Below, piece by piece: positions 4,795-55,300 of a stretch of DNA of 64,000 nucleotides (positions are counted from its first letter, which is position 1; the number at the start of each line of letters is the position of its first letter). This DNA is from Dipteris shenzhenensis (lineage: Eukaryota): assembly GCA_047967505.1 (NCBI GenBank), contig CM106538.1. The stretch is one strand, 5' to 3'. The notes under the pieces are model-generated. The model saw only the letters and a program-made list of their open reading frames with translations, had not been told where the DNA came from and did no database searches. Position numbers and translations under genes: made by a program.

Positions 4795-5327
4795 ATGGCT
4801 CAGGACTTCCCGTTGTTTCATGGGATGCCAGGCGAGGATGCTGAAAAGTTTATGTGGAAATTACTTGTTTGATCAAGAATCACGGCAAGATGCAGCCTTC
4901 ATGTTATAGATCTACACGTATTGTGTATAGGAGGAAGCAAGGAGATGGTTTCAAGCTTTACGAAGCCACTCAAGCAGCAAATAATTCACTGAGGTAACTT
5001 TTGAATTGGCAAGGGATGCTTTTTTGCAGCATTATAGGAGGGTAGAGGATCCAAATAAGTTGTGGCATGAAATACAAAATTTAGTGCAAAGAGGTCCCCT
5101 TGAAACATATATTCAGGATTTCAGCCGCTTGTGGGATCATTGGTGTGTGTCACTAGGGAATGAGCAGCCACCTGCCATGTTGAAGAAGGAGAAATTGATT
5201 TCAGGACTTAGAGGTCCTTTGAGGATGAAGCTAGAACTGAAACCTATAGCCAATTTCTAGGAAGCAGTGGATTTGGCAAAGGCAAAAGAGTGGAAGATGA
5301 TTAGACTAGAGCAGTTGACCACAGGAG
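4795..5327 (+). pseudogene. Ty3/gypsy retrotransposon gag remnant, cut by copia A
   Basis: MAQDFPLFHGMPGEDAEKF..., EARRWFQAL and ORF 5006-5260 (LWHEIQNLVQRGPLETYIQDFSRL...ISGLRGPLRMKL) fit a retrotransposon gag pattern. It ends abruptly at the TG of the LTR at 5328. Confidence 0.65.
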
Positions 5328-11775: not shown

Positions 11776-14170
11776 TATTTCCGCATGAGCATAAGCATGA
11801 GCTTATGCTTATGCTTATGCATAAGCATAAGCATAAGCTCATGCTTATGCTCATTCATGAGCATGAGCTTATGCGTAAGTTTCCGCAAGAGCTTATGCGG
11901 AAATAGAGAATGAGAGAAGCATATGCTTCTCTCATTCTCTTTTTCTGCATAAGCTCCTTCTCTCATTCCACATAAGCTCCTTCTCTATTTCCGCATGAGC
12001 ATAAGCATGAGCTTATGCTTATGCTTATGCATAAGCATAAGCATAAGCTCATGCTTATGCTCATTCATGAGCATGAGCTTCTGCGTAAGTTTCCGCAAGA
12101 GCTTATGCGGAAATAGAGAATGAATTCCGCATATGCTTCTCTCATTCTCTTTTTCCGCATAAGCTCCTTCTCTCATTCCGCATAAGCTCCTTCTCTATTT
12201 CCGCATGAGCATAAGCATGAGCTTATGCTTATGCTTATGCATAAGCATAAGCATAAGCATAAGCATAAGCTCATGCTTATGCTCATGCATGAGCATGAGC
12301 TTATGCTTATGCTTATGCTTATGCATAAGCATGAGCATGAGCTTATGCTTATGCTTATGCTTATGCTTATGCATAAGCATAATCATAAGCTCATGCTTAT
12401 GCTCATGCGAAAATAGAGAAGGAGCTTATGTAGAATGAGAGAAGGAGCTTATCATGAGCTTATGCGCAAGTTTCCGCAAGAGCTTATGCGCAAGTTTCCG
12501 CAAGTTTCCGCAAGTTTCCGCAAGCATAAGCATAAGCTCATCTTATGCTCATGCAAGTTTCCGCAAGTTTCCGCATGAGCTCCTTCTCTTTTTCCGCATA
12601 AGCTCCTTCTCTTTTTCTGCATAAGCTCCTTCTCTATTTTCGCATGAGCATAAGCATAAGCATAAGCTCATGCTTATGCTCATGCATGAGCATGAGCTTA
12701 TGCGCAAGTTTCCGCAAGAGCTTATGCGCAAGCTTCCGCAAGTTTCCGCAAGCATAAGCATAAGCATATGCATAAGCTCATGCTTATGCTCATGCAAGTT
12801 TCCGCAAGTTTCCGCATGAGCTCCTTCTCTTTTTCCGCATGAGCTCCTTCTCTTTTTCCGCATAAGCTTCTTCTCTATTTTCGCATGAGCATAAGCATAA
12901 GCATAAGCTCATGCTTATGCTCATCCATGAGCATGAGCTTATGCGCAAGTTTCCACAAGAGCTTATGCGCAAGTTTCCGCAAGTTTCCGCAAGTTTCCGC
13001 AAGCATAAGCATAAGCATAAGCATAAGCTCATGCTTATGCTCATGCAAGTTTCCGCAAGTTTCCGCATGAGCTCCTTCTCTTTTTCCGCATAAGCTCCTT
13101 CTCTCATTCCGCATAAGCTCCTTCTCTATTTCCGCATGAGCATAAGCATGAGCTTATGCTTATGCTTATGCATAAGCATAAGCATAAGCATAAGCATAAG
13201 CATAAGCTCATGCTTATGCTCATGCATGAGCATGAGCTTATGCGCAAGTTTCCGCAAGACTTATGCGCAAGTTTCCGCAAGTTTCCGCAAGCATAAGCAT
13301 AAGCGTAAGCATAAGCTCATGCTTATGCTCATGCATGAGCATGAGCTTATGCGCAAGTTTCCGCAAGAGCTTATCCGCAAGTTTCCGCAAGTGCTCCTTC
13401 TCTTTTTCCGCATAAGCTCCTTCTCTTTTTCCGCATGAGCATAAGCATGAGCTTATGCTCATTCATGAGCATGAGCTTATGCGTAAGTTTCCGCAAGAGC
13501 TTATGCGGAAATAGAGAATGAGAGAAGCATATGCTTCTCTCATTCTCTTTTTCCGCATAAGCTCCTTCTCTCATTCCGCATAAGCTCCTTCTCTATTTCC
13601 GCATGAGCATAAGCATGCTCACCTTCTCTATCTCCGCATATGCGGAAACATGAGCATAAGCTCATGCTCACCCATGAGCATCCGCATAAGCTCATGCGGA
13701 AAAAGAGAAGGAGCTTATGCGGAAATAGAGAATGAGTTTCCGCATAAGCTCTTTCTCTTTTTCCGCATAAGCTCTTTCTCTTTCTCTTTTGCGTGAGCAT
13801 ATGCGGAAATAGAGAATGAGAGAAGCTTATGCTTCTCTCCTCCTCTATTTTCGCATATGCGGAAACATGAGCATAAGCTCATGCTCACCCATGAGCATAA
13901 GCATAAGCTCATGCGGAAAAAGAGAAGGAGCTTATGCGGAAATAGAGAATGAGAGATGCTTCTCTCCTTCTCTTTTTCTGCATAAGCTCCTTCTCTTTTT
14001 CCGCATGAGCATAAGCATGCGGAAACTCATCCTTCTCATGCTTATGCTCATGCATGTGCATGAGCTTATGCTTAAGTTTCCGCATAAGCTCATGCTTATG
14101 CGTGAGCTTATGCGGAAATAGAGAATGAGAGAAGCATAAGCTCATTCTCTATTTCTGCATAAGCTCATTC
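11775..14170. repeat. 2.4-kb compound simple-repeat array inside the CACTA element
   Basis: Mixed gcataa, gcatga and cttatg hexamers, gcaagtttcc decamers and ctccttctc blocks, with higher-order duplication (near-identical units of about 210 bp starting near 11775 and 11985). Confidence 0.92.
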
Positions 14171-14396
14171 TCTATTTCCCACTCTATTTCCCCCTTCTCT
14201 CATTTCCCCCTTCTCTCATTCTCTATTTTCCCTCATCTCTATTTCCCCCTTCTCTCATTTCCCCCTTTCTCTCATTCTCTATTTCCTCATTCTCATTCTT
14301 TTCTTTCCTTTACATCTTCTTTCCCTCTTATCTTTCCCTCTTCTTTCCCTCTTTCCTTTCCCTCTTCTTTCCTTTCCCTCTTCTTTCTTCTTCCCT
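14170..14396 (+). repeat. CT-rich tract upstream of the second CACTA gene
   Basis: Nearly pure pyrimidine run (ttccctctt repeats). Confidence 0.75.
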
Positions 14397-14468
14397 ATGC
14401 CTATGCCTATGAGAATGCTCATGTTTGTTTATTTGTTTTCTGTTTTCGTGTTTGTGTCTATGTTAGAC

Positions 14469-16044
14469 ATGGGATCACGTCGCTCATCGGACGAGTATGG
14501 ACAGCCTCGCAGGAGGAGAGCTCACGATCTATATGCTCCAGAGGACTTTGATTCCTCTCAGGCAACTACCCCAAGGACTACCCCTGGTCCGACTCCTCTC
14601 GGTCCTAGCACTGTGACTACCCCTGGTCCGACCCCTCTTCCACGTAGCACTGCGACTACCCCTCAGGGGACTCCTTTGCTAGCCGCGCATGGCTTTGTTG
14701 GGACTCCCGATGAGTTTGTAGTGCAGATGAGCGATGAGGAGGCAGCGAGATTCTTCTCTCTGCTCTCTCAGAGGACCTCCGCAATTCCTTCCCCTACACC
14801 GACGGGTGGATGTACAGCCCAGCCATCCCCTCGCGCCCCTTCGACCGCGGGATCATCACCTGCGCATGCCTCCCGCAAGGGAAGGAAGAGTAGGATGGGC
14901 GGCTCATGTTGTGCTGACTCAAGAGATGTAGACGAGTCAGCACACTCACGCTCCTTTAGGTCTCCACTTGGTCCGGAGACACAGTATCAGTCAGGTCCCT
15001 TTCCCTCTCCTACTCCCACATCTACTCCTCGATCCGGAAGCGGTCGCGTAGCTTCCACTCCTTCAGACTCTGCTACCGTCAGTCCCCCTTACTCATCAGG
15101 GGATCTCTCCTATCAAATCACATCTGCTGGAGAGATAATAGAAGACAAAAAGGGCAAAGCAGTGATGGCCGCCATGAGGCGGTTGATGAGTCATCACTTC
15201 AAGAGCGGCATAAATATCGATTGGCGGTATCAAGATGGCCAAAAGAAGCAGGCGGTGATCGATGAGTTAAAACAAAGATATCCTAATCCGCCAAATGTGG
15301 AGTTTAATAACAGTTATATGCTCGAGCGCATGGGTTTGGTCCTAAAGCATCGCAGATCAACCATGCGTACTTCCATTACAAAGGGGTTGGCTAAACCCAG
15401 CTGGGCAGACAAAGCTGATTGGAAGTACTTCAAGAAGCAACATAGGGACCATCCTGAAATGTTCGAGGGTCAGAGGAGGGCTACGAAGAGACGGCTGGAT
15501 GTCATAGGTACTTCGCACTTTGGTGCAGGCGGACGGTATGCGTTCGAGGCAACCGTGGTAAGTTTACTTCTTTCCATTTAATGTATTGTTCTATTTGTTT
15601 TACTTACATATTACATGCACTTTAGCTAACTCTAACTCTCGTAAATTGGATCCACAGCAAGCTGCGATGGGTCGTCTTCCTATGGATGCAGAGACGCGGC
15701 GCGCATTTCGGATAGGAACCAAGCCGTGGTTCATTGAGCAAGAGGCAATGGGAGCGATAGTCGATTGGGCTGAGGTGGCTGCTCGCACGGTATAAGTTTA
15801 CTCCTACTTGTAATCTCACTTTTTAATTTAAGTTCCAATCTAATTTTCGATTTATATGGTTCACTCTCAGGGTCAAAGCTCAAGCGTCCCATCATCAGAG
15901 ACGAGTGATCAACAGGGGCAAGGATCGGACGCAGGTGCCGATGACGAGGGAGAAGATGCAGGTGTCGGGGACAAGGGAGAAGATGCAGGTGCCGAGGACC
16001 AGGGAACAGCCCAACAAGACGATTCGGATTCGGATTCAGATTAG
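14469..16044 (+). CDS. Second CACTA gene, probable TnpA/Ptta-En/Spm-like protein, 3 exons, about 464 aa
   Basis: Exons 14469-15557, 15658-15789 and 15871-16044 join in frame at GT..AG sites with no stops. The N-terminus is S/T/P-rich, the core reads DWRYQDGQKK..., KPSWADKADWKYF, SHFGAGGRYAFEATV|QAAMGRLPMDAE, and the tail is acidic. The family assignment is by resemblance. Confidence 0.7.
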
Positions 16045-16525: not shown

Positions 16526-17390
16526 TGCGCCCGTGAAAAAAAAAAATTTTAATGTAAAAAGCGTCGGTATTTCCGTCGGAAAATGGCCTATGCCTTGTAG
16601 TGCTAGACATGTTCAAGAGAGTAAGAATCCATTGGAATTAATCCACTCTGATGTGTGGACTACTAAAGCTGCATCTATTGGAGGCTGTCATTATTTTGTC
16701 ACTTTTATTGATGACTACAGCAGAAAAGTTTGGGTGTATTTTATGAAAAAGAAAAGTGAAGTGTTTGGGCATTTCAAAGCTTTTAAAGCTATGGTTGAAA
16801 AAGAAATAGGCCTGCAAATAAAATGCCTAAGGTCAGATGTAGGCAGAGAGTACCTCTCAAATGAGTTTGCAAGGTTCCTACAGGAGCATGGCATAAAGCA
16901 GCAATATTCATGCAGTCATATCCCACAGCAAAATGGACTTGCCAGAAAGGAAAAACAAGCATATTGGAGAGGTATCTCGGGCCATGCTAAATGAAAAAGA
17001 CCTACCAGATAATTATTGGGCTGAAGCAATTGCTACAGCAGTTTACATAATGAACAGGACTTTCACTGCAGCAATACATGGCATGATACCAGAGGAGATG
17101 TATACTAGTAGGAAACCAGATATTTCTCATTTGAAAATTTTTGGTTGCATTGCCTATGTTCATGTGCCAGATGAGTTGAGGTACAAGTTGGATCCAAAAG
17201 CTGAGAAGTGCATCTTTATTGGTTATTCTCTGCAGCAAAAAGGTTATAGATGCTATAACCCTTCTACTCATAGGTTTACAGTGAGTTGAGATGTTGTTTT
17301 TTATGAGATGACCAGCTGGTATAAACCAGTAAATGTGATTGATGATGTAGATGCACAAAATGGTAATGTTGCACAGAATTCACAGCAACA

Positions 17391-18084: not shown

Positions 18085-21000
18085 CAACAATCACAAAATA
18101 TTAGTGGATCTGTAGTGTCCTCTAGCAGTAGTTCACATACTTCACCATGGACAGGTAGATTGAGATTAGGAGAATCTCCTCAAAGCAATTTAGATAGTGG
18201 TATGCAGGTATCACGAAAAGGAAAAGAGAAGGTTGATCAGCCCATGTTTGATGTGAATGCAGGTCACTCTTATCAGGATGGTGAATCCAGTGGCTCAGAA
18301 GAGAGCATTGATGATGAGTTGGGTATTCCTTCTGTTGTTACACCTAGAGTAAGGAAGACCAGGGATGTTTTGAGAGCACCTGGAAGTGAGCCTATTTTGC
18401 GCAAGTCTACTAGAGCTAGGTATTCTGTGGATAGGATGAAATATGATGGATTTACAGCCATTCACTATGCCTATATGGTCAAAGTGATACAGGAACCAGA
18501 ACCCACCTCTTTTGAGTAAGCCATGGGAAAAGAAAAAAGGGAGAAAGCCATGGATGAAGAAATGGATTCCTTGGAAGCAAATGCTACATGGGAATTGGTG
18601 CCTTTGCCTAAAGACAAGAATGCAATTGGCTGTAAGTGGGTTTATAAGGTGAAGCACAAAGCAGATGGTTCTGTGAATAGATACAAGGCAAGATTAGTTG
18701 TCAAAGGGTATGCACAGACATATGGTATTGATTATGAAGAAACATTCAGTCCAGTTGCAAGGATGGCAACTGTAAGAGTAGTCATTGCCGTGGCTGCATC
18801 AAAGAAATGTCTTTACATCAAATGGATGTAAAGAATGCCTTCTTGCATGGTGATTTGCAAGAAGAGGTCTTTATGGAGCAGCCACCAGGTTATGTTCATG
18901 CTATTCATCCTGAGTTTGTTTGTAGGAGGTTGAAGAAAGCCTTGTATGGCTTGAAACAAGCACCTAGAGCATGGTCTGACAAAATAGCTCGGTATTTTGT
19001 CATTATTGGCTTTCAAATTTCCAAGGCAGATTTCTCACTTTATGTGAGAAAAATAGAGAAAGGTATTATGCTGCTTGTCATTTATGTTGATGATTTGATC
19101 ATCACAGGTGATAGTGATGAAGATATCCTTCATGTGAAAATGCTATTGAAGCAAAAGTTTGAGATGAAGGATTTGGGAGAGCTGCGTTATTTCTTGGGCA
19201 TTGAGGTGATTAGATCACCAAGTGGGATACGGCTCTTACAGAGGCAGTATGGATTGGACATGCTATCCAAATATGGAATGAAAGGCTATAAGCCTACTTC
19301 AGTTCCTTTGGAGCAGAATGTGAAGATGTAGGTGAAGCTAAGTCCACATTGTAGTATGGCCTATTTTATGAGACTGGGGTTCAGATACAGTTGCATGGAT
19401 ACACTGATGCTGATTGGGCTGGTAGTATTTCTAATAGATGATCTATCAGTGGATATGTGCTCTCTTTTGGGAGTGCTGCAGTCACTTGGAGGAGCAAGAA
19501 ATAGTCTACACTTGCCTTGTCGAGCATAGAGGCTGAGTACAGGGGTTTAGCAATGGCTGCATGTGAGGTAGCTTGGTTGCATAAGCTACTTTATGATATG
19601 CATCAGTCTACAGATGGGCCAGTTGTCATTTACTGTGACAACATGAGCAGTATACACTTGGCAAATAACCTAGTCTATCATGCTAAAACAAAGCACATTG
19701 AGGTGAGTTATCACTATGTGCGAGAGAAGGTTTTACTAGGTCTTATTGATCTAGTTTATGTCAGCACAGAGGATCAGGTAGCTGACATATTTATGAAGGA
19801 ATTGGGCACAGAGAAGCTGCACAAGTTTAGAGACCTACTTGGTGTGTAGGAATTGGGATTGAGCTCGAGGGGGAGTGTTGAGATATTGAGCTCCACTCGT
19901 GATATGCCAGGGTGACCGTTGTGCATTTATGTCATCGACTTGTTAGCTGCAGATGCGGTTGGTACACTGCCCATGAATAATAGTTGGATGACAGCTATCC
20001 TTATGTACTCTAGTTCGTGGCTCAGTTAGTATGCCACCTTAGTTAGCTGAGTTTGGTTTGAGACCCACATCTAGGGTTCTTCTATTTCTTCGTACTAGAG
20101 TTCTTTTGGCTTACACAACTAAGAAGAGGAAAGTTGTTTTCAGCCTCCACCTTTGTGTGTATGCCCCCATTGTGTATGTGAGAAAGTCGCAAGTGAGACT
20201 CCTTCCCTCTCTCCCACTATCTTCACAATTATTTTATCACTATTATTAATGACTACAGCAAAAAAGTTTGCGTGTATTTTATGAAAAAGAAAAGTGAAGT
20301 GTTTGGGCATTTCAAGCTTTTAAAGCTATGGTTGAAAAAGAAATAGGCCTGCAAATAAAATGCCTAAGGTGAGATGGAGGGGGAGAGTATCTCTCAATTG
20401 AGTTTGCAAGTTTCTTGCAGGAGCATGGCGTAAAGCAGCAATATTCATGCAGTCATACCCCATAGCAAAATGGACTTGCAGAAAGGAAAAACAGGCATAT
20501 TGGAGAGGTATCTTGTGCCATGCTGAACGAAAAAGACCTGCCAGATTATTATTGGGTTGTAGTTGCTACAGCAGTCTACATAATGAATAGGACTCCCACA
20601 TGATGCCAGAGGAGAGGTATACTGGTAGGAAACTAGATATTTCTCATTTGAAAGTTTTTGGTTGCATTGCCTATGTTCATGTGCCAGATAATTTGAAAGT
20701 TTTTGGTTGCATCTTTATTGGTTATTCTCTACAGCAGAAAGGGTATAGATGCTATAACCCTTCTACTCGTAAGTTTACAGTGAGCACAGATGTTGCTTTT
20801 GATGAGATGAGCAGTTGGTATAAGCCAGTAAATGTGATTGATGCACAAAATGGTAATGCTGCACAGAATTCACAGCAGCAGTCACAAAATATTACTGGAC
20901 CTGTAGTGTCCTCTAGTAGTGGTTCACATACTTTGCCATGGATAGGCAGATTGAGATCAGGAGGATCTCCTCAAAGCAATGCAGATAGTGGTATGCAAGT

Positions 21001-24834: not shown

Positions 24835-25440
24835 ACTGGCACTCATCTCTCTTAGGAGAGTTGTGTGTTGCAGTCTTTTTAAATTGTTTAATATTTATTT
24901 TGTATCATGTTTAAGTGTGTAGACAGTCATCTCTCTTGCGAGAGTTGTGTGTTGTATTCTGTTTTTGTCGTGTGTTTCAATTTTAATTATAATATAAATA
25001 ATTATCTTTTACCTCAGGCTAGCACTCATCTCTCTTAAGAGAGTTGTGTGTTGTAGTCCAAGCTTAGTGATCTTTTACCTCAGACTGGAACTCTTGGGCT
25101 AGCACTCATCTCTCTTAAGAGAGTTGTGTGTTGCAGTCCAAGCTTAGTGATGTTTTCATAGATGCTTATTCAGGCACTCATCTCTCCCTTGAGAGTTGTG
25201 TTACAGTCTAAGTTTAGAGATGTTTTCTTAGACCCTTAGTCTGGCACTCAAATATCCCTTGATAGTTGTGTGTTGTAGTCTAAGTTAGATATCATGCGAC
25301 ATTGCCTTAGACACTTAGTCTAGCACTCAATTGTCCCTGGATAGTTGTGTATTGCAGCCTAAGTTAGATATCATGCGATGTGCTCTTAGACACTAGTCTG
25401 GCACTCAAGTGTCCCTTGATAGTTGTGTGTTTTAGTTGAA
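24835..25440. repeat. Array of about 8 copies of a roughly 38-bp core with variable spacers
   Basis: Core gcactcatctctcttaagagagttgtgtgttgcagtc, with the internal palindrome ctctcttaagagag, at about 24839, 24922, 25022, 25103, 25174, 25244, 25323 and 25401. Confidence 0.85.
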
Positions 25441-25740: not shown

Positions 25741-26165
25741 TTCCCTCCCTCCTCTCTCCTCCCTCCCTCCCTCCCCCTCCCTCACTCCCCCTCTCACTCC
25801 CTCCTCCCCCTCCCTCCTCCTCCCCCTCCCTCCCTCCCTCCTCCCCCTTCCCTCTCCTCCCCTCCCCCTCCTCACTCCCTCCTCCCCCCTCCTCCTCCTC
25901 CCCCCCCCTCCCTCCCTCCTCCATGCCTCCTCCTTTTGCCCTCCCCTCCCTCCATCCTCCATGCCTGCTCCTCTTGCCCTCCCCCTCCCTCCTCCTCCAC
26001 TGCTGCTCCTCCCCCCTTCCTCCTACTCCTCCCTCCTCCCTCCTTCCTCCTCCATGCCTACTCTTCCTCACCCTCCACACCTGCTGGTTTGCCCCCCTTT
26101 CCTCCTCTTCAACTTCTAGTCCTCCCTCCACCATCCCTCCTCCTCCTCGCCCTCCCTCTTCCTAC
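25741..26165 (+). repeat. Polypyrimidine (CCT)n tract directly upstream of the RAG1-like ORF
   Basis: About 420 bp of almost pure C/T sequence. Confidence 0.9.
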
Positions 26166-26223
26166 ATGTTGCTCCTTCAAGCTTGCATCTCAACACCTTC
26201 TCCTTCTCTACACTCCTTTAGTC

Positions 26224-28847
26224 ATGGCACCATTCGAGGATGTCTCCAACAAGTACCAGGTTCACTTAGAGTTGGAGGCTGAATATGCAAGCACACGTAG
26301 TCTAGGATTGAGGGGAGATTCCAAAATCCATAGTGACCTTCATTCGGAAGGAAAGAAGCATCTCGACCTTTGGGTAGAAGAATCCTTGTATCCTTTAGAT
26401 CCTACCAACCAAAAGAGCCCTCCTTTCTATACAATGCATGAGCTAGTTCGGTTTGTTGGAAATGGACATGCGGAATTACTTGGTTATTGCAATCGGTTAA
26501 ACAAGTTTATACCAGCTGCTCATCTCATCAAAAACAACATCTCTTCTCATTGTAAACTTATGAGTAGAAGGGTTATAGCATCTATACCCTTTCTATTGTA
26601 GAGAATAACTAATAAAGATGCACTTCTCATCTTTTGGACCCAACTTGGATCTCCACTCATCTGGCACATGAACATAGGCAATGCAACCAAAAACTTTCAA
26701 ATGAGAAATATCTAGTTTCCTACCAGTATACCTTTCCTCTGGCATCATGCCATGTATTGTTGCAGTGGGAGTCTTGTTCATTATGTAGACTCTTGTATCT
26801 TTATGATAAAGCCAAAGCATTGGACTTGGAGTGAAAATGCATTGGACTTGGAGCGACATACATTAAAAGAGTCACTCTGTAAGCTAGCTGAGTCCAAAAA
26901 AGGCTTGGAAAGATCTATATACAATCAAGTACGATGAGCGGTAGAGAAGGAATGAGAGAAGGTAGAAGAACGAGTGCAAAAGATGAAAGAAACACCTTTG
27001 GGATTGAAGGAGAGGAAAAGAAGGTACTGGCATAACATGGATGCATTGGCACCCACTGGTGGTGCTAGAAAGAGGAGAGTCTGGGCTACAAGGTTGGTTA
27101 TCAAATGTTCCAATGAGATTACACTCTTTTGTGCTACACTATTTGTGACTAAGTTTCTATTGTGTTGTTCTTTAGGAACTTCATGGAAGATGTGATGGGA
27201 AGAACGGACGGGGATGATATTGACTGTTCATATGCTCTAGCTAGTTTATTGAAGTCAAGCGTGGTCATTGGGATACTAAGGGACCCAAGACACAAGCGCC
27301 TACGTGTGCAAGTTGCTAAGGAGGTGATGAAGGACTTCAAGGATATTGTGGATGCAAAGGAGATGCTTGCAGCTTGTGATACTGCCAGTGTAAGTCGTGA
27401 AGCTTACACATTTGTTTTCAAAATTTTCAAGTATGCTATTTTGGGAAAGTATAAGAAGTCTACAGTGCCCCTACCCACACCTTGGTCTGTGAGACATGCA
27501 CGGCGAGAAACAAAACAATGTGCAAGAGAAATGCTTGGAGGGTACCATTGCATAAGGGGCACAATGACTTGGAAGAGTAAAAAGAAATCTGGCTTGCAAA
27601 CCTTTGAGATGAATGTTTTCAACAATGTCTACTTAGATGTTGAGAAACTGCAACAAGCAATGGTCAAATTCTATGGCATGAGAGAAGATGGTAAGAGGAA
27701 ATCCATTATAGCATTGCACTTTACTTAGTTCATTTCCTATATCATGTTTATCCTAACGATTTTTCTCTTTTGTTGTATAGATTGCAATGGAAAGATCATA
27801 TTTGTCATCAAAATGGATGAAGCTCAATTGGTGAAAGAACACAAGTTAGAGAGAGTTAGCATCTGCATTATGAATAAAGCCTTAGCCTTTGTTCAAGGGG
27901 ATGAAGAAGTAGAGCAAGATTTCTCAGTGCAATCAAAAAAAGATATATGGTGGCTTGTAGCATTTGAGACTTCAAAAGAGTGCCATGAGACATTGAAGTG
28001 GGTTCTAGATAGAACAAGAATCCCATCGACCATCCGAAGACAAGAGGAAGGGCAAACACTATCAGTCGATGGCCATGGAACCTTTCAAGTTGAATGGCAT
28101 CTTGCTAGTGATTTGAAAACCCTCAGGTGCTTGCATTGTTGTGATACAGGGGCAAATGCAATGAGCACATGCCTTTATTGCATGTGTTCGCAACGTAAGC
28201 AAAAGGCTGGCTTACAATGGGAGAATGGCATTCTATCTTGTAGCCAAACACAAGCTCCAAATCGCAACAAGAAGGATTCAAAGTGGGATCCCATCTTGCC
28301 CATCCCACTTGAGAGAGTACACATATATACTTTACACGCAGAACTGTGCGTACTTGATAAGTTGTTGTATTTGCATCTTCTTTATACTTGGAATTTAATT
28401 CCGCAAGAAGTATTTGCACGGTGCATTGCAGAAGCTGAGAAGTTGTTGTCAGAGATGGGATTCCATGGAGGACATGTCAAACTTAAGGAGGATAAGAAAA
28501 TGTCTGGGGCAACACAGAATCTTCTTGCAAAAGTGTCCATGGGTGGAGGGCAGGCAAGGAGATTCCTATTGAACCACAATCTCGACAAAGACAAACATAC
28601 ATTGTCTCAAAGTAGTTTGGGTTGGGAATACTAGAAAGCATTGTGTGAATGCATGACCAATAAGGCTTCTCATCCTCAAGTAGCAACTTTGAGAGCTAAA
28701 GTATGGACAAAGGTAGATGCATTGATAAAATTGCTTTGCCAGGTTCAAATCGATGAGATGTATTATGAAAGGTTCAGGATGGCTGTGAAAGAGTTTATGC
28801 AATTAATGGTGAAAGCATGGGGGGAGTCACACATTATGCATTACATG
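26224..28847 (+). pseudogene. Spliced RAG1/Transib-like DDE transposase pseudogene, 3' end missing
   Basis: ATG at 26224 and frame-preserving introns 27093-27175 and 27691-27780. The motif order FVIKMDEA, WHLASDLKTL, GANAMSTCLYC, YTLHAEL, SMGGGQARRFL, HIMHYM parallels RAG1 KESCDG, GYDEK, YICTLC, DALHCD, MNGNFARKL, ITNYFH. There are a few premature stops (e.g. TAG 28632-28634) and a copia insert at 26505-26791. Confidence 0.6.
26505..26791 (-). mobile_element. Inverted fragment (about 290 bp) of copia family A/B integrase, no LTR
   Basis: VYIMNKTPTATIHGMMPEERYTGRKLDISHLKVFGCIAYVHVPDE matches about 17040-17330 and 20572-20825. Confidence 0.9.
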
Positions 28848-28927
28848 GTAATCTTGGCACCATTGTAACATTTAGCACTTAATTTACAAATAGTTTTGGT
28901 TGCTGATTTGATTCTCAAATTGCAAGC

Positions 28928-29260
28928 CTAGAGAGGAAATTGAATGCCATTTGAAGAAGAAGTGCACGTATGAAGTCGATGTTCAACAAGTGGAACTTAT
29001 AGATTGTTGTAAGTTGAAGTGTTGCTAGATTGCAGATCCTAATTTGGTTTTGCAAATGAGAGTGGAATTTTGGAGCATGAACTTGGAGAATCGAATGACC
29101 TATATCTTCAATAGCTTCACTAATGCTATATGGATTGATTCAAAAGGTGTTGCGTCACAACTGTTTAGCTTTGATGGGAGGAAAATATGTTGTAGGGCAT
29201 GGTATGAATTGCATGCAAATTCTAAAACTTCATACTATAGGTACAAGGAACAACATAATG
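28928..29260 (+). pseudogene. Cys-rich N-terminal fragment of a probable Sola/DUF7869-like transposase gene
   Basis: DCCKLKCC...QMRVEFWSM...FSFDGRKICCRAWYELHANSKTSYYRYK. It is truncated at the cacaacaaga terminus-like site (29261). Confidence 0.4.
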
Positions 29261-52934: not shown

Positions 52935-53618
52935 TAGGATTTATTTTGCCAGATTATAATAAAATGCATACGGATCATTTTGATAGAGTCAAACAAACTG
53001 TGCTGGATTGCTTGAAAAAAAAGATATTGGACTTTATTCCTACATATGGGTGCACTCTTGCATTTGATGGATGGACTAGCAAGTAGGCCAGACCCTTCAT
53101 AAATGTAATGCACATTACTCCCAAGGGAACTATGTTTTTTAAGAGTATTGATACGTCTCTAAAAGAAAAAACTTTGGCATATATTGTAAAAATATACAAA
53201 AGAGCAATTCGCAAAGTTGGTGGCAGTGAGAATGTTACTGCATTAGTAACAGATAATGCATCGAATTACAAGACCACAAGTGAGATGGTCATGGCAAAGT
53301 ATCCCACTCTAACATGGGTGCCATGTGGCACTCATACTCTCAACTTATTGTTGAAGGATATTGGACAATTGCCATTTGTGCAACCAGTACTACAAGATGC
53401 TAATGCCGTAGTGATTTTTATAAAGAGTCATCAATACTTGCATGCAATACTCAGAGAGCACTCTATGAAGCAACTCGGGCAATTTTGTCAAACTAGATTT
53501 GCCACTTCTTTTCTAGTTCTTGCTAGATTGTTAGAAGTGCGTCAAGCTTTAGTCAAGACTGTTGCTAATAGACAATGGGCGAATTGGCTAGAGAAAAAGA
53601 CGCAGTACGAATACCAGG
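52935..53618 (+). pseudogene. hAT transposase fragment (DUF659-type core)
   Basis: GCTLAFDGWTSK*ARPFINV, FFKSIDTS, VTDNASNY, WVPCGTHTLNLLLKDIG (CxxH) and TRFATSF. One stop, and truncated where it meets the copia gag. Confidence 0.88.
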
Positions 53619-55300
53619 CCATTGCATCATCTGTAGTGATTGGAGAGTTGATCGAAGCAAGTTGAGTCATGAGACTCCGCATATAATTGACATGGGCAGC
53701 CAAAGGAGTGCCACTAGCCATCTTCAATTCAAAGAAAGCAATCTTAAGTGACAATTTTGAGATGTGAGAGCTAGCACCAAAAATAATGTCAAGCTTCTGC
53801 CAAGCTTCAGAAGGAGACTCCAAATCAGAAATGTGATGAATATAGTCATCTCCTAAGCCAAGGGCAATGATGCCATAGGCTTTCTCCTCTCTAGCAAGAT
53901 CTCTTGCCGGATGTGTCAAAGCTGAGGATTCTCTAGCATTAGAGGCTATTGAAGAAGTAGTTGAAGCAGGTTTGACAAGCCCCCAGAGGTTTTCCCTCAT
54001 CAATGCAAACTTAATCTTCATCTGCCATGTGTGAAATCCTTTACCATTAAACTTATCCATATTCAAGATGGTAGCCATGAGAGGGTCTAACCCAAAATGG
54101 GTAGTGTCTACTCTCTTACAAGGCTAGAAAGAGTTGAAGAGCTTCAAAATACAAGCATTTAGAGTAGCAAAGACTTGTAACCAAATTCCATACTACAAAA
54201 CATGATGGAAATGATGCTTTCACTTGCATGCTTCATAGAGGTGGCTAAATGAAAGCATTCCAGGCAAATCCAGGTGTAGCAACTTAAAGCAAAGCTGTAG
54301 CGGTAGTTGTACTGAAGCTATTCAACACTTTAAAACATCAGAATTGCTAAAGTAGCATCTAATGTAGCATCAAACTCACAACATTGTCAAAACTGTCCAA
54401 AACAGAGACCAGAACTTGGAGGGTGCAATTCTCACAGCTCATAGCTCTATTCAAGGGGATTTTTATGCAGGAAGAAGGGCCTTATACCAGAGAAGGTCTA
54501 CCAGCAAGGAGGGGTGCAATGTTGCGTCAGGTCGCCATAGCCAAGCTTGAGAAAACCAACTGGTTTTTCGTCTGTTACGCCTCCGTTCCTTGTCCAAATG
54601 AGCTCAGATTTTAGCAACAGCTTGCCCTCAGTGTCGTCTAGCATGAGCTTAGAGGAATTTGCAGATAGGTAGGTACAGAGGTAGAATTGCACGAAAGTTT
54701 ATCGAGGAGTGTGTGTTGGCATTGCGCATACAGACAAAATTTCCCTAAATGCTTGCAGCTGGAAGTTTTCCCATACGTGAGGAGTTTGCAGCTCAAAGGA
54801 TTTGTGCAATGGTCATTTGTAGGTAGAGAACAGAGCTCTCAAAGATTTGGGGAAGGAGAAGGAAAATGGAGAAGATGAGTAACTAGTAGTTTATGCCAGA
54901 GATAGCATCTAATGCTAGGCTAGGCTAGATCTAGAACCTAAAGCTCTCATACCATTTTTAGGATCCCGTAGAATAGAATAGATGTATCTTGCAAGAGGTG
55001 TGAGAGCACAATGAAAGAAAGATGGTAGATCTCTATTATGATTGTGAGAGAGAGGAGACTCTCTTATTGAAAAGGGGAGAAGGTAATACCTTCCCTACAT
55101 AGTGGCAATCAGCCCCTACATCAGTGGGAATCAATCCCTACATCAGTGGGATTGCCTTTGTCTTACATCATCACTTAGGTCACACACTAGACACATCATA
55201 GCACTTGATGTGCCTTTACAACACACACAAACACACATGTGACTCCCCTAGATGCAAACATGCACCATAGAGCAAGCCCTTGATCATACTTACCCCAACA
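53616..55300 (-). mobile_element. Truncated copia element G (5' LTR, PBS, leader, gag N-terminal half)
   Basis: LTR about 54956-55300 (starts tgttgggg on the minus strand) and PBS 54943-54954. Gag from 54078 reads DKFNGKGFHTWQMKIK...AWQKL. Confidence 0.82.

Follow-up and report, generated by a model that had tools for sequence, protein, structure and literature searches.

Introduction

RAG1 is the enzyme behind antibody diversity: it cuts and joins antibody genes, and it descends from Transib-type transposons. DALH, GNFARK, and YFH..H are motif strings of the RAG1/Transib core. Here we examine positions 26,224 to 28,847 of a 64,000-nucleotide stretch of Dipteris shenzhenensis DNA (GenBank assembly GCA_047967505.1, contig CM106538.1), hereafter called the window and numbered from its first letter, in which an earlier note, made from the sequence alone, had seen a decayed RAG1/Transib-like transposase gene with spliceosomal introns. 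Our reading, to which we give a probability of roughly 0.78, is that a multi-copy DNA transposon of the cut-and-paste type left this segment behind as a dead copy of its transposase gene.

RAG1 and Transib belong to the wider CMCT clade, together with EnSpm/CACTA, Mirage, Chapaev, Plavaka, ESTA, and Lanisha, and the members have in common two Asp, one Glu, two Cys, and three His (Kojima 2025, PMC12730594; this and the other papers are drawn on here in excerpts). The signature runs in the order D, D, C(2)C, H, H(3-4)H, E, and the elements typically have 5'-CA..TG-3' termini and duplications of 2-5 bp (PMC12730594). Chapaev has been placed within a wider Transib superfamily (Kapitonov and Koonin 2015, PMC4411706). 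As regards plants, their genomes seemed free of recognizable Transib elements in the excerpted text of Kapitonov and Jurka (2005, PMC1131882), and Tao et al. (2022, PMC9435367) report 39 Transib-like plant proteins, with barley and Silene in a figure legend. Carey et al. (2021, PMC8245031) named Lanisha, a cut-and-paste superfamily not described before, from the moss Ceratodon purpureus; its description is that of Maumus et al. (Repbase Reports 2020, as cited by Kojima, PMC12730594). Our literature search for plant or moss Transib descriptions returned only mentions in repeat tables, the set of Tao et al., and Lanisha.

Within the CMCT clade, the family to which the window gene belongs looks nearest to RAG1/Transib, judging by predicted fold, language-model features, and residue spacing, and not by detectable sequence similarity. 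We begin with the gene remnant itself, afterward move on to its relatives and their predicted structure, and then weigh the alternatives.

The Gene Remnant and Its Decay

The plus strand of the window holds a true gene remnant at 26224-28847, with three exons, two GT-AG introns, and a series of six motifs. Its parts are given below, with reference to the full-length relative P0006.

26224..26505, plus strand: first part of exon 1, with the ATG and a conserved N-terminal domain (MAPFED...GYCNRLNK); found by tblastn with P0006 residues 9-97 (E 8e-21, 46% identity)
26505..26862, minus strand: inserted copia-type integrase fragment (SH3-like domain), which splits the coiled-coil part of exon 1 and brings two stops into the gene's frame
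26863..27092, plus strand: second part of exon 1, with a coiled-coil remnant and the basic motif GGARKRR (27058-27078); its translation aligns to P0006 'KKTPIGMRERIK...GGRKRR'
27093..27175, plus strand: intron 1, 83 nt, GT..AG, phase 2; excision joins ...RKRRVWATR to NFMEDV..., colinear with P0006
27176..27690, plus strand: exon 2 (translation P0002), stop-free, the helical region ahead of the catalytic domain
27691..27780, plus strand: intron 2, 90 nt, GT..AG, with a pyrimidine tract, phase 1; GT-AG introns at the same position in the related loci L008, L013, and L027, none in the relatives P0003-P0008
27781..28847, plus strand: exon 3 (translation P0001), the RNase H-like catalytic domain; 42-43% identity to P0003-P0006 over 99-100% of P0001
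27810-27824, plus strand: KMDEA motif
27816-18 and 28110-12, plus strand: the two catalytic-type Asp codons of exon 3
28104-28118, plus strand: ASDLK motif
28170-28181, plus strand: CLYC (CxxC) motif
28329-28343, plus strand: TLHAE motif, with its His codon at 28335-37
28536-28565, plus strand: SMGGGQARRF motif
28830-28847, plus strand: HIMHYM motif
28848..28885, plus strand: start of intron 3, with the donor GTAATC at 28848 directly after HYM; likeness to other genomic copies ends by about 28885

As judged from the sequence, both introns are genuine, because the excised product is colinear with the intron-less relatives, its length unchanged, and because related loci carry GT-AG introns at the same positions. 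Three GT..AG intron positions are common to related loci, namely at about P0006 residue 186 (in L009), at about residue 355 (in L008, L013, and L027), and at residue 704; a separate subfamily has an intron at about residue 416. The intron at residue 704 follows HY(L/M/I) in L006, L010, and L022 and is read through in P0006, while L009 shows a GT donor there, with no AG acceptor in the printed flank. In relatives, the exon after this third intron restarts with His-Ile (H-I-L/I), and the window's donor at 28848 coincides exactly with theirs. Colinearity and matching introns in related loci thus bear out the two frame-preserving introns proposed earlier (27093-27175 and 27691-27780), and the six motifs, said to follow one another in a given order, all lie in that order in exon 3, from 27810 to 28847.

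The window copy is dead and cannot act, because it has no exon encoding the second His pair and the catalytic Glu, stops are present, and a copia fragment splits the gene. In a tblastn search with five relatives (E<=10), no such last exon was found anywhere in the 64-kb window; 3' of exon 3 lie pieces of a copia polyprotein on the minus strand. The copia insert matches PF25597 (E 2.6e-17, 26596-26862, minus strand), and its edge at 26505-26530 resembles copia segments elsewhere in the window (17303-17326 and 20800-20823). The coding frame is unchanged across the insert, the gene resuming in the same frame. Outside it three further stops stand in frame, namely TGA at 26935-37, TGA at 26953-55, and TAG at 28632-34. 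In three contigs of X1, a DNA run with the same species label, position 28633 is a G, which turns the window's TAG into a Trp codon, as in relatives. The decay is hence as first described: stops, a copia insert, and a last exon with the catalytic Glu that is absent from the window.

The surroundings fit the plant genome that the sequence had suggested. The window has 41% G+C and consists largely of copia, gypsy, and hAT debris, and among its Pfam matches are Retrotran_gag_2, DUF4219, and DUF659, which we take to be families typical of plants.

A Large Family of Relatives

Exon 3 (P0001, with an X at the stop) matches four proteins of 690-857 aa at E-values of 8.8e-85 to 4.9e-78 and 42-43% identity, the lowest value, for P0003, being calculated for a database of 5.8 billion proteins; E-values of this size rule out a chance open reading frame. 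A profile search of 1.84 billion representatives returned 724 proteins at E<=1e-3, 407 at E<=1e-10, and 77 at E<=1e-30, most of them fragments. In a scan of metagenome contigs we found 35 related loci at 26-76% identity, 21 of which come from one assembly. Eleven of the 35 are free of stops in all matched pieces, and the other 24 have one to nine stops, some of these within read-through introns. Intact relatives, whose existence elsewhere had been raised as a possibility, are thus at hand, both as the full-length proteins of 690-857 aa and as the loci free of stops in their matched pieces.

An intact family protein has about 800 aa and consists, from its N-terminus on, of an N-terminal domain, a coiled coil, a basic motif GG(R/A)(K/R)(K/R)R, a helical, putatively DNA-binding region, and a DDE domain with a predicted RNase H fold. 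The cluster names of relatives are uninformative, and organism labels are found only on two short members, from protist transcriptome sets. A plant-like genome and many environmental contigs of eukaryotes carry members of the family. A tree was made from 40 core sequences, loci without one matched piece spanning at least 200 core residues being left out, and in it the window protein falls inside a clade of ten (Shimodaira-Hasegawa-like approximate likelihood ratio test, 99). This clade also includes P0008, the group of P0006 and L001, which has the accessory gene ORF2 (see below), and the group of L007-L013, which has H3 or ORF2-like genes.

The Pfam matches seen in the scan of the family are all below threshold and mostly to coiled-coil models, save for two unrelated fused domains, DUF7794 (P0064) and Integrase_H2C2 (P0088). 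A single-sequence search of PDB sequences returned no RAG1 or Transib match. Distant members were also aligned and used in a word-index search aimed at Pfam-annotated RAG1 relatives, which returned only three family members.

Predicted Fold and Active Site

For P0006, the closest full-length relative, an AlphaFold2 model was made with 150 aligned relatives. Its mean predicted local distance difference test score (pLDDT) is 74.5 and its predicted template modeling score 0.66; 323 residues reach a pLDDT of at least 90, and most of the core lies above 90. The structural neighbors of this model are RAG1 and its kin. All 49 Foldseek matches in the PDB at E<=1e-3 are RAG1, BbRAGL (the amphioxus RAGL), or HzTransib, with a best value of 4e-10, and the next match, Hermes, follows at 1.2e-2. 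VIA-align on the Foldseek list puts RAG1 (4wwx_E) at Z 18.1, with a root-mean-square deviation of 4.8 over 435 aligned residues (model 258-810 to RAG1 476-1008), and HzTransib (6pqx_A) at Z 15.8; the P element reaches 9.7, ISCth4 8.3, and Hermes 8.1. In a search of 48,161 representative chains that is independent of Foldseek, the top six are RAG1, RAGL, and Transib (Z 14.0-18.1), and the next has 9.4. Over the two comparisons HzTransib has Z 14-15.8, as against 9.4-9.7 for the next family.

The structural alignments to RAG1, RAGL, and HzTransib have Z 14-18 over 360-460 aligned residues, at 10-14% identity. The model matches the fold of the whole core (DDBD, pre-RNase H, RNase H, ZnC2, ZnH2, and CTD), and the counterpart of exon 2 corresponds to the NBD/DDBD/pre-RNase H region of RAG1, model residues 235-360 aligning to RAG1 458-590 in VIA-align. 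The RAG1/Transib-like fold claimed for the window gene is thus upheld by the predicted structure of its relative. Membership of the hAT, P element, or MULE type was considered and is ruled out, since Z is at most 9.7 there, as against 14-18 for RAG1, RAGL, and Transib. Language-model features give a similar picture: in the ESM Atlas feature search, P0006 230-704 has RAG1 as its first named cluster (0.97, 198 of 256 features), and the nearest named clusters for P0132 are RAG1 as well (0.93). No CACTA families are among the ESM Atlas rows listed.

The candidate active-site residues of P0006 can be set beside those of mouse RAG1 (the latter from excerpts of PMC4914335):

Catalytic residues: P0006 D367, D464, and E759; mouse RAG1 D600, D708, and E962
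Zinc ligands, putative in P0006: C484, C487, H735, and H740; mouse RAG1 C727, C730, H937, and H942
Second Asp to first Cys: P0006 20 residues; mouse RAG1 19
His to His: P0006 5 residues (H735-H740); mouse RAG1 5 (H937-H942)
Second His to Glu: P0006 19 residues (H740-E759); mouse RAG1 20 (H942-E962)

D367, D464, and E759 are kept in the relatives that cover them, both Asp are kept in the window copy, and H541 of P0006 is likewise conserved. In the model D367 lies in a strand, D464 just past a strand, and E759 at the start of a helix, which is consistent with an RNase H fold. A large, putatively zinc-binding insertion is found between the second Asp and the Glu, with CxxC after the Asp and HxxxxH before the Glu, a layout shared with the RAG1/Transib core. 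In one clade (P0132, P0152, P0158, P0161, and P0180), all four putative ligands have been replaced together, and these proteins keep the Asp-Asp-Glu triad, the two other His, and long open frames. Such a joint loss is as expected if the four residues form one site.

Ahead of the catalytic domain, the family has a basic motif GG(R/A/W)(K/R)(K/R)R, which reads GGRKRR at P0006 176-181, GGRKKR in P0004, and GGARKRR in the window. In P0006 it stands 82 residues ahead of the residue aligned to RAG1 476; the nonamer-binding GGRPR of RAG1 (389-393) stands 87 residues ahead of the same residue (PMC12711392). The likeness of GGRKRR to GGRPR is one at the level of a motif only.

Placement Within the CMCT Clade

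All eight signature residues of the CMCT clade are present in the family and in the same order (in P0006, the three catalytic residues together with C484/C487, H541, and H735/H740), and the window copy itself has CMCT-type CLYC and TLHAE. With the RAG1 core, the ProtoRAG RAG1L, and HzTransib (4WWX, 6B40, and 6PQN/6PQX), the family shares the predicted whole-core fold, the DDE triad on an RNase H fold, and the CxxC...HxxxxH spacing, and with RAG1 the position of the GGR-basic motif. It differs from them in that no similarity is detectable by HMMER and in its additional N-terminal domain, coiled coil, and spliceosomal introns. The earlier interpretation holds as regards fold and clade; membership of the Transib superfamily is unproven.

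Several results count against our interpretation. Pfam transposase and RAG1 models, to begin with, have no match in five window pieces, four close relatives, 20 long relatives, or 150 alignment members, and hmmsearch of all PDB sequences with two family profiles (A2 and A3) found none of the RAG1, BbRAGL, and HzTransib sequences present there (E<=10). Near the Glu, the third of the catalytic residues, the model is weak (pLDDT 44-57 for 751-780), and next to this region P0006 includes 30 intron-coded residues (705-734). The solved CMCT structures come from the RAG1, RAGL, and Transib branch only, with no CACTA, Mirage, Chapaev, or Lanisha transposase among the structures searched; a best match to RAG1 is therefore expected for any CMCT member, and fold cannot separate Transib from the rest. 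ESTA, another CMCT lineage, also matches RAG1 by HHpred (PMC12730594, excerpt). On the side of mobility, neither terminal inverted repeats (TIRs) nor target-site duplications (TSDs) were found in the window or in nine long related loci, whose contigs are probably shorter than the elements. Finally, in three RNA runs with the same species label, of each of which about 19-24% was read, no exon read was seen at >=90% likeness.

The family might be Lanisha, or some other lineage close to EnSpm/CACTA within the CMCT clade, rather than a sister of Transib/RAG1, its RAG1 likeness merely reflecting which members have been solved. We take this seriously and rate it at somewhat under even odds. The order D, D, C(2)C, H, H(3-4)H, E is common to all CMCT lineages, ESTA shares the HHpred match, Lanisha is said to be EnSpm-like (PMC12730594, excerpt), and the family has no HMMER-level likeness to RAG1 or Transib. 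The RAG1/Transib side is nonetheless favored, because RAG1 clusters, and not CACTA, are the nearest named ones among the ESM Atlas rows listed, because CACTA Pfam models are unmatched, and because the spacing agrees with RAG1, the His-pair and D-to-CxxC distances being equal or nearly equal to those of RAG1; GGRKRR, moreover, is placed where RAG1 has GGRPR. The CACTA transposase models of Pfam, Transposase_21 and DUF4218, are unmatched in the 29 proteins listed in full and are not among the 25 families most often matched by the 150 members (E<=10). We give about even odds to the family standing closer to Transib/RAG1 than to the lineages on the side of CACTA.

Two sets of described plant elements invite comparison. 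Lanisha (GenBank MT647524), from Ceratodon purpureus, is likewise a land-plant, CMCT-type, cut-and-paste lineage outside the classical CACTA and can be likened to the family by description only, as given in excerpts; the family may be Lanisha. The proteins of Tao et al. (2022, PMC9435367, excerpt) are likewise RAG1/Transib relatives from plant assemblies, but they were found with Transib queries. The present family is undetectable by HMMER in that way and is therefore probably a different, more distant set. The earlier suggestion of a little-described land-plant RAG1/Transib-like lineage thus stands in part: the fold is borne out by the 49 of 49 PDB matches, Transib membership is not shown by HMMER or Pfam, and "little described" is fair where "undescribed" would not be.

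In any case, this is a large family with 724 relatives, none of which, among those scanned, matches a Pfam transposase or RAG1 model, and its predicted core superimposes on RAG1 above any other solved protein. If the placement beside Transib/RAG1 is true, the RAG1 fold would have a wider host range and a greater age, and the family would offer new natural enzymes for comparison with RAG1, some of them with partner genes. If the family is instead Lanisha or on the CACTA side, the value is smaller, consisting of a fold assignment, the accessory-gene content of a barely described superfamily, and a missing annotation model.

Transposon or Host Gene

The relatives are multi-copy and under purifying selection. 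Of eight paralog pairs, five have unsaturated synonymous divergence (dS), with ratios of nonsynonymous to synonymous substitution rates (dN/dS) of 0.12, 0.26, 0.22, 0.13, and 0.22, and three are saturated. In a look-up of sequencing runs, the best share for a DNA run was 0.21, and no RNA run was among those listed. In X1, which bears the species label of that best run, many short variant contigs cover 26111-28885, with two distinct contigs over 28372-28575. Summed word depth in X1 should not be read as copy number; of the 18 bins of 26888-28885, 17 have 106-433 and one has 2021, and the depth drops to 0 in 28886-29107.

The window gene might alternatively be a pseudogene of a host gene, anciently domesticated from such a transposase, and not a transposon copy. 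Intron positions conserved among related loci, dN/dS of 0.12-0.26 between paralogs, and the lack of TIRs and TSDs in the window and related loci would fit this explanation. On the other hand, it has to contend with the many variant contigs over the gene in one DNA run with the same species label, with 21 diverged loci in one assembly and stops in the matched pieces of 24 of the 35 loci, with variable accessory genes that accompany the gene and two-gene units duplicated jointly (for example L002/L004 and L010/L030), and with the copia, gypsy, and hAT debris among which the window copy sits. We consider domestication very improbable and keep to the transposon reading.

The search for element ends, which the earlier note had expected to be CAC-type TIRs with 5-bp TSDs, defined no such ends in the window or the nine long loci, nor the termini and duplications typical of the CMCT clade. 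The only candidate among the nine loci was in L001, an exact inverted match of 16 CT-rich nucleotides (399-414 and 5031-5046). Its best-conserved part faces inward, and it resembles the leaders of the two genes more than a terminus. The stretches L001:372-414 and L001:5032-5074 are the CT-rich leaders of the RAG1-like gene and of ORF2, and they are seen as a weak inverted repeat. When the 35 loci were compared all against all by blastn, no pair marked an element boundary, and the window has no second copy of the gene and no inverted copy of the repeats upstream of it.

These upstream repeats occupy 24920-25440 of the window, 0.8-1.3 kb 5' of the ATG, and form some seven tandem units of 70-79 bp, in each of which there is a small palindrome (ctctcttaagagag). 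They may belong to the subterminal parts of the element or else be a satellite that has no connection with it. A long CT-rich tract (CCT/TCCC) stands directly 5' of the gene, at 25742-26053.

By analogy with RAG1, HzTransib, and the CMCT clade, an active enzyme of the family would bind the element ends, nick them, and release the element, probably via hairpins on the flanking DNA, and the element would then be inserted with a short TSD. We infer the catalytic mechanism and the zinc binding from these systems and, no TIRs or TSDs having been found, the mobility of the family as well.

RNA reads on the gene are found only in bins spanning the copia insert (26444-26776), chiefly at a 33-nt piece at its edge (26509-26541). 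This piece is extremely abundant in X1 and accounts for nearly all RNA reads on the stretch, and the reads there run into unrelated sequence on both sides.

Accessory Genes in Relatives

The most interesting lead is the accessory genes of the relatives, and the family merits a proper placement and a family model. Of the 21 loci whose downstream DNA measures 300 nt or more, 14 have a second gene (ORF2, ORF2-like, or H3-like). In nine of the 21 (L001, L006, L010, L014, L020, L022, L023, L030, and L032), a conserved ORF2 of about 600 aa runs toward the RAG1-like gene from the opposite strand, the two genes being tail to tail, and an ORF2-like gene lies on the same strand as the RAG1-like gene in L011 and L013. 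In L002, L004, and L008, and partially in L027, a histone H3-like gene follows directly downstream on the same strand. Two-gene units have been duplicated as one, for example in L002/L004 and L010/L030. The positions are as follows.

L001:3045-4962, minus strand: ORF2
L006:3261-4884, minus strand: ORF2
L010:2807-4832, minus strand: ORF2
L014:3290-5120, minus strand: ORF2
L020:3105-4572, minus strand: ORF2
L022:3467-5347, minus strand: ORF2
L002:2162-2704, plus strand: H3-like gene (PF00125, E 5.6e-26)
L004:1675-2226, plus strand: H3-like gene (PF00125, E 7.3e-34)
L008:3633-4436, plus strand: H3-like gene (PF00125, E 3.1e-18)
L027:1404-1496, plus strand: H3-like gene, partial

The middle of ORF2 is acidic, and its C-terminal domain is well conserved. 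It matches nothing in Pfam and nothing among PDB sequences, even with a profile for the latter, and a word-index homolog search returned only ORF2 itself. A search of the window turned up neither ORF2 nor an H3-like gene. In ProtoRAG, RAG1L and RAG2L are convergent (PMC9435367, excerpt), and the convergent ORF2 of the relatives is placed like RAG2L; the likeness is one of arrangement only, kinship to RAG2 not being shown. Our literature search found no Transib-type element with its own histone H3.

A bolder view would see in the family a deep, plant- and protist-wide sister lineage of RAG/Transib, with a nonamer-binding-like GGRKRR, the zinc site of RAG1, and a multi-gene element that has either a convergent partner or its own H3 variant. 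We think this unlikely; if it were true, the architecture of RAG1 plus partner and the link between a RAG1-like protein and a chromatin protein would be far older and wider than animals.

Just upstream of the start of ORF2 lie clusters of 22-nt repeats or palindromes of 24-80 nt (L014:5051-5291, L006:5009-5257, and L001:4985-5104), which may be control or end-proximal sites.

Other Features of the Window

Two further features were noted on the plus strand of the window. A 472-aa open frame without a Pfam match lies amid copia debris at 14163-15578, and a remnant of a hAT-type transposase, with DUF659 at E 1.9e-28, is found at 53087-53662.

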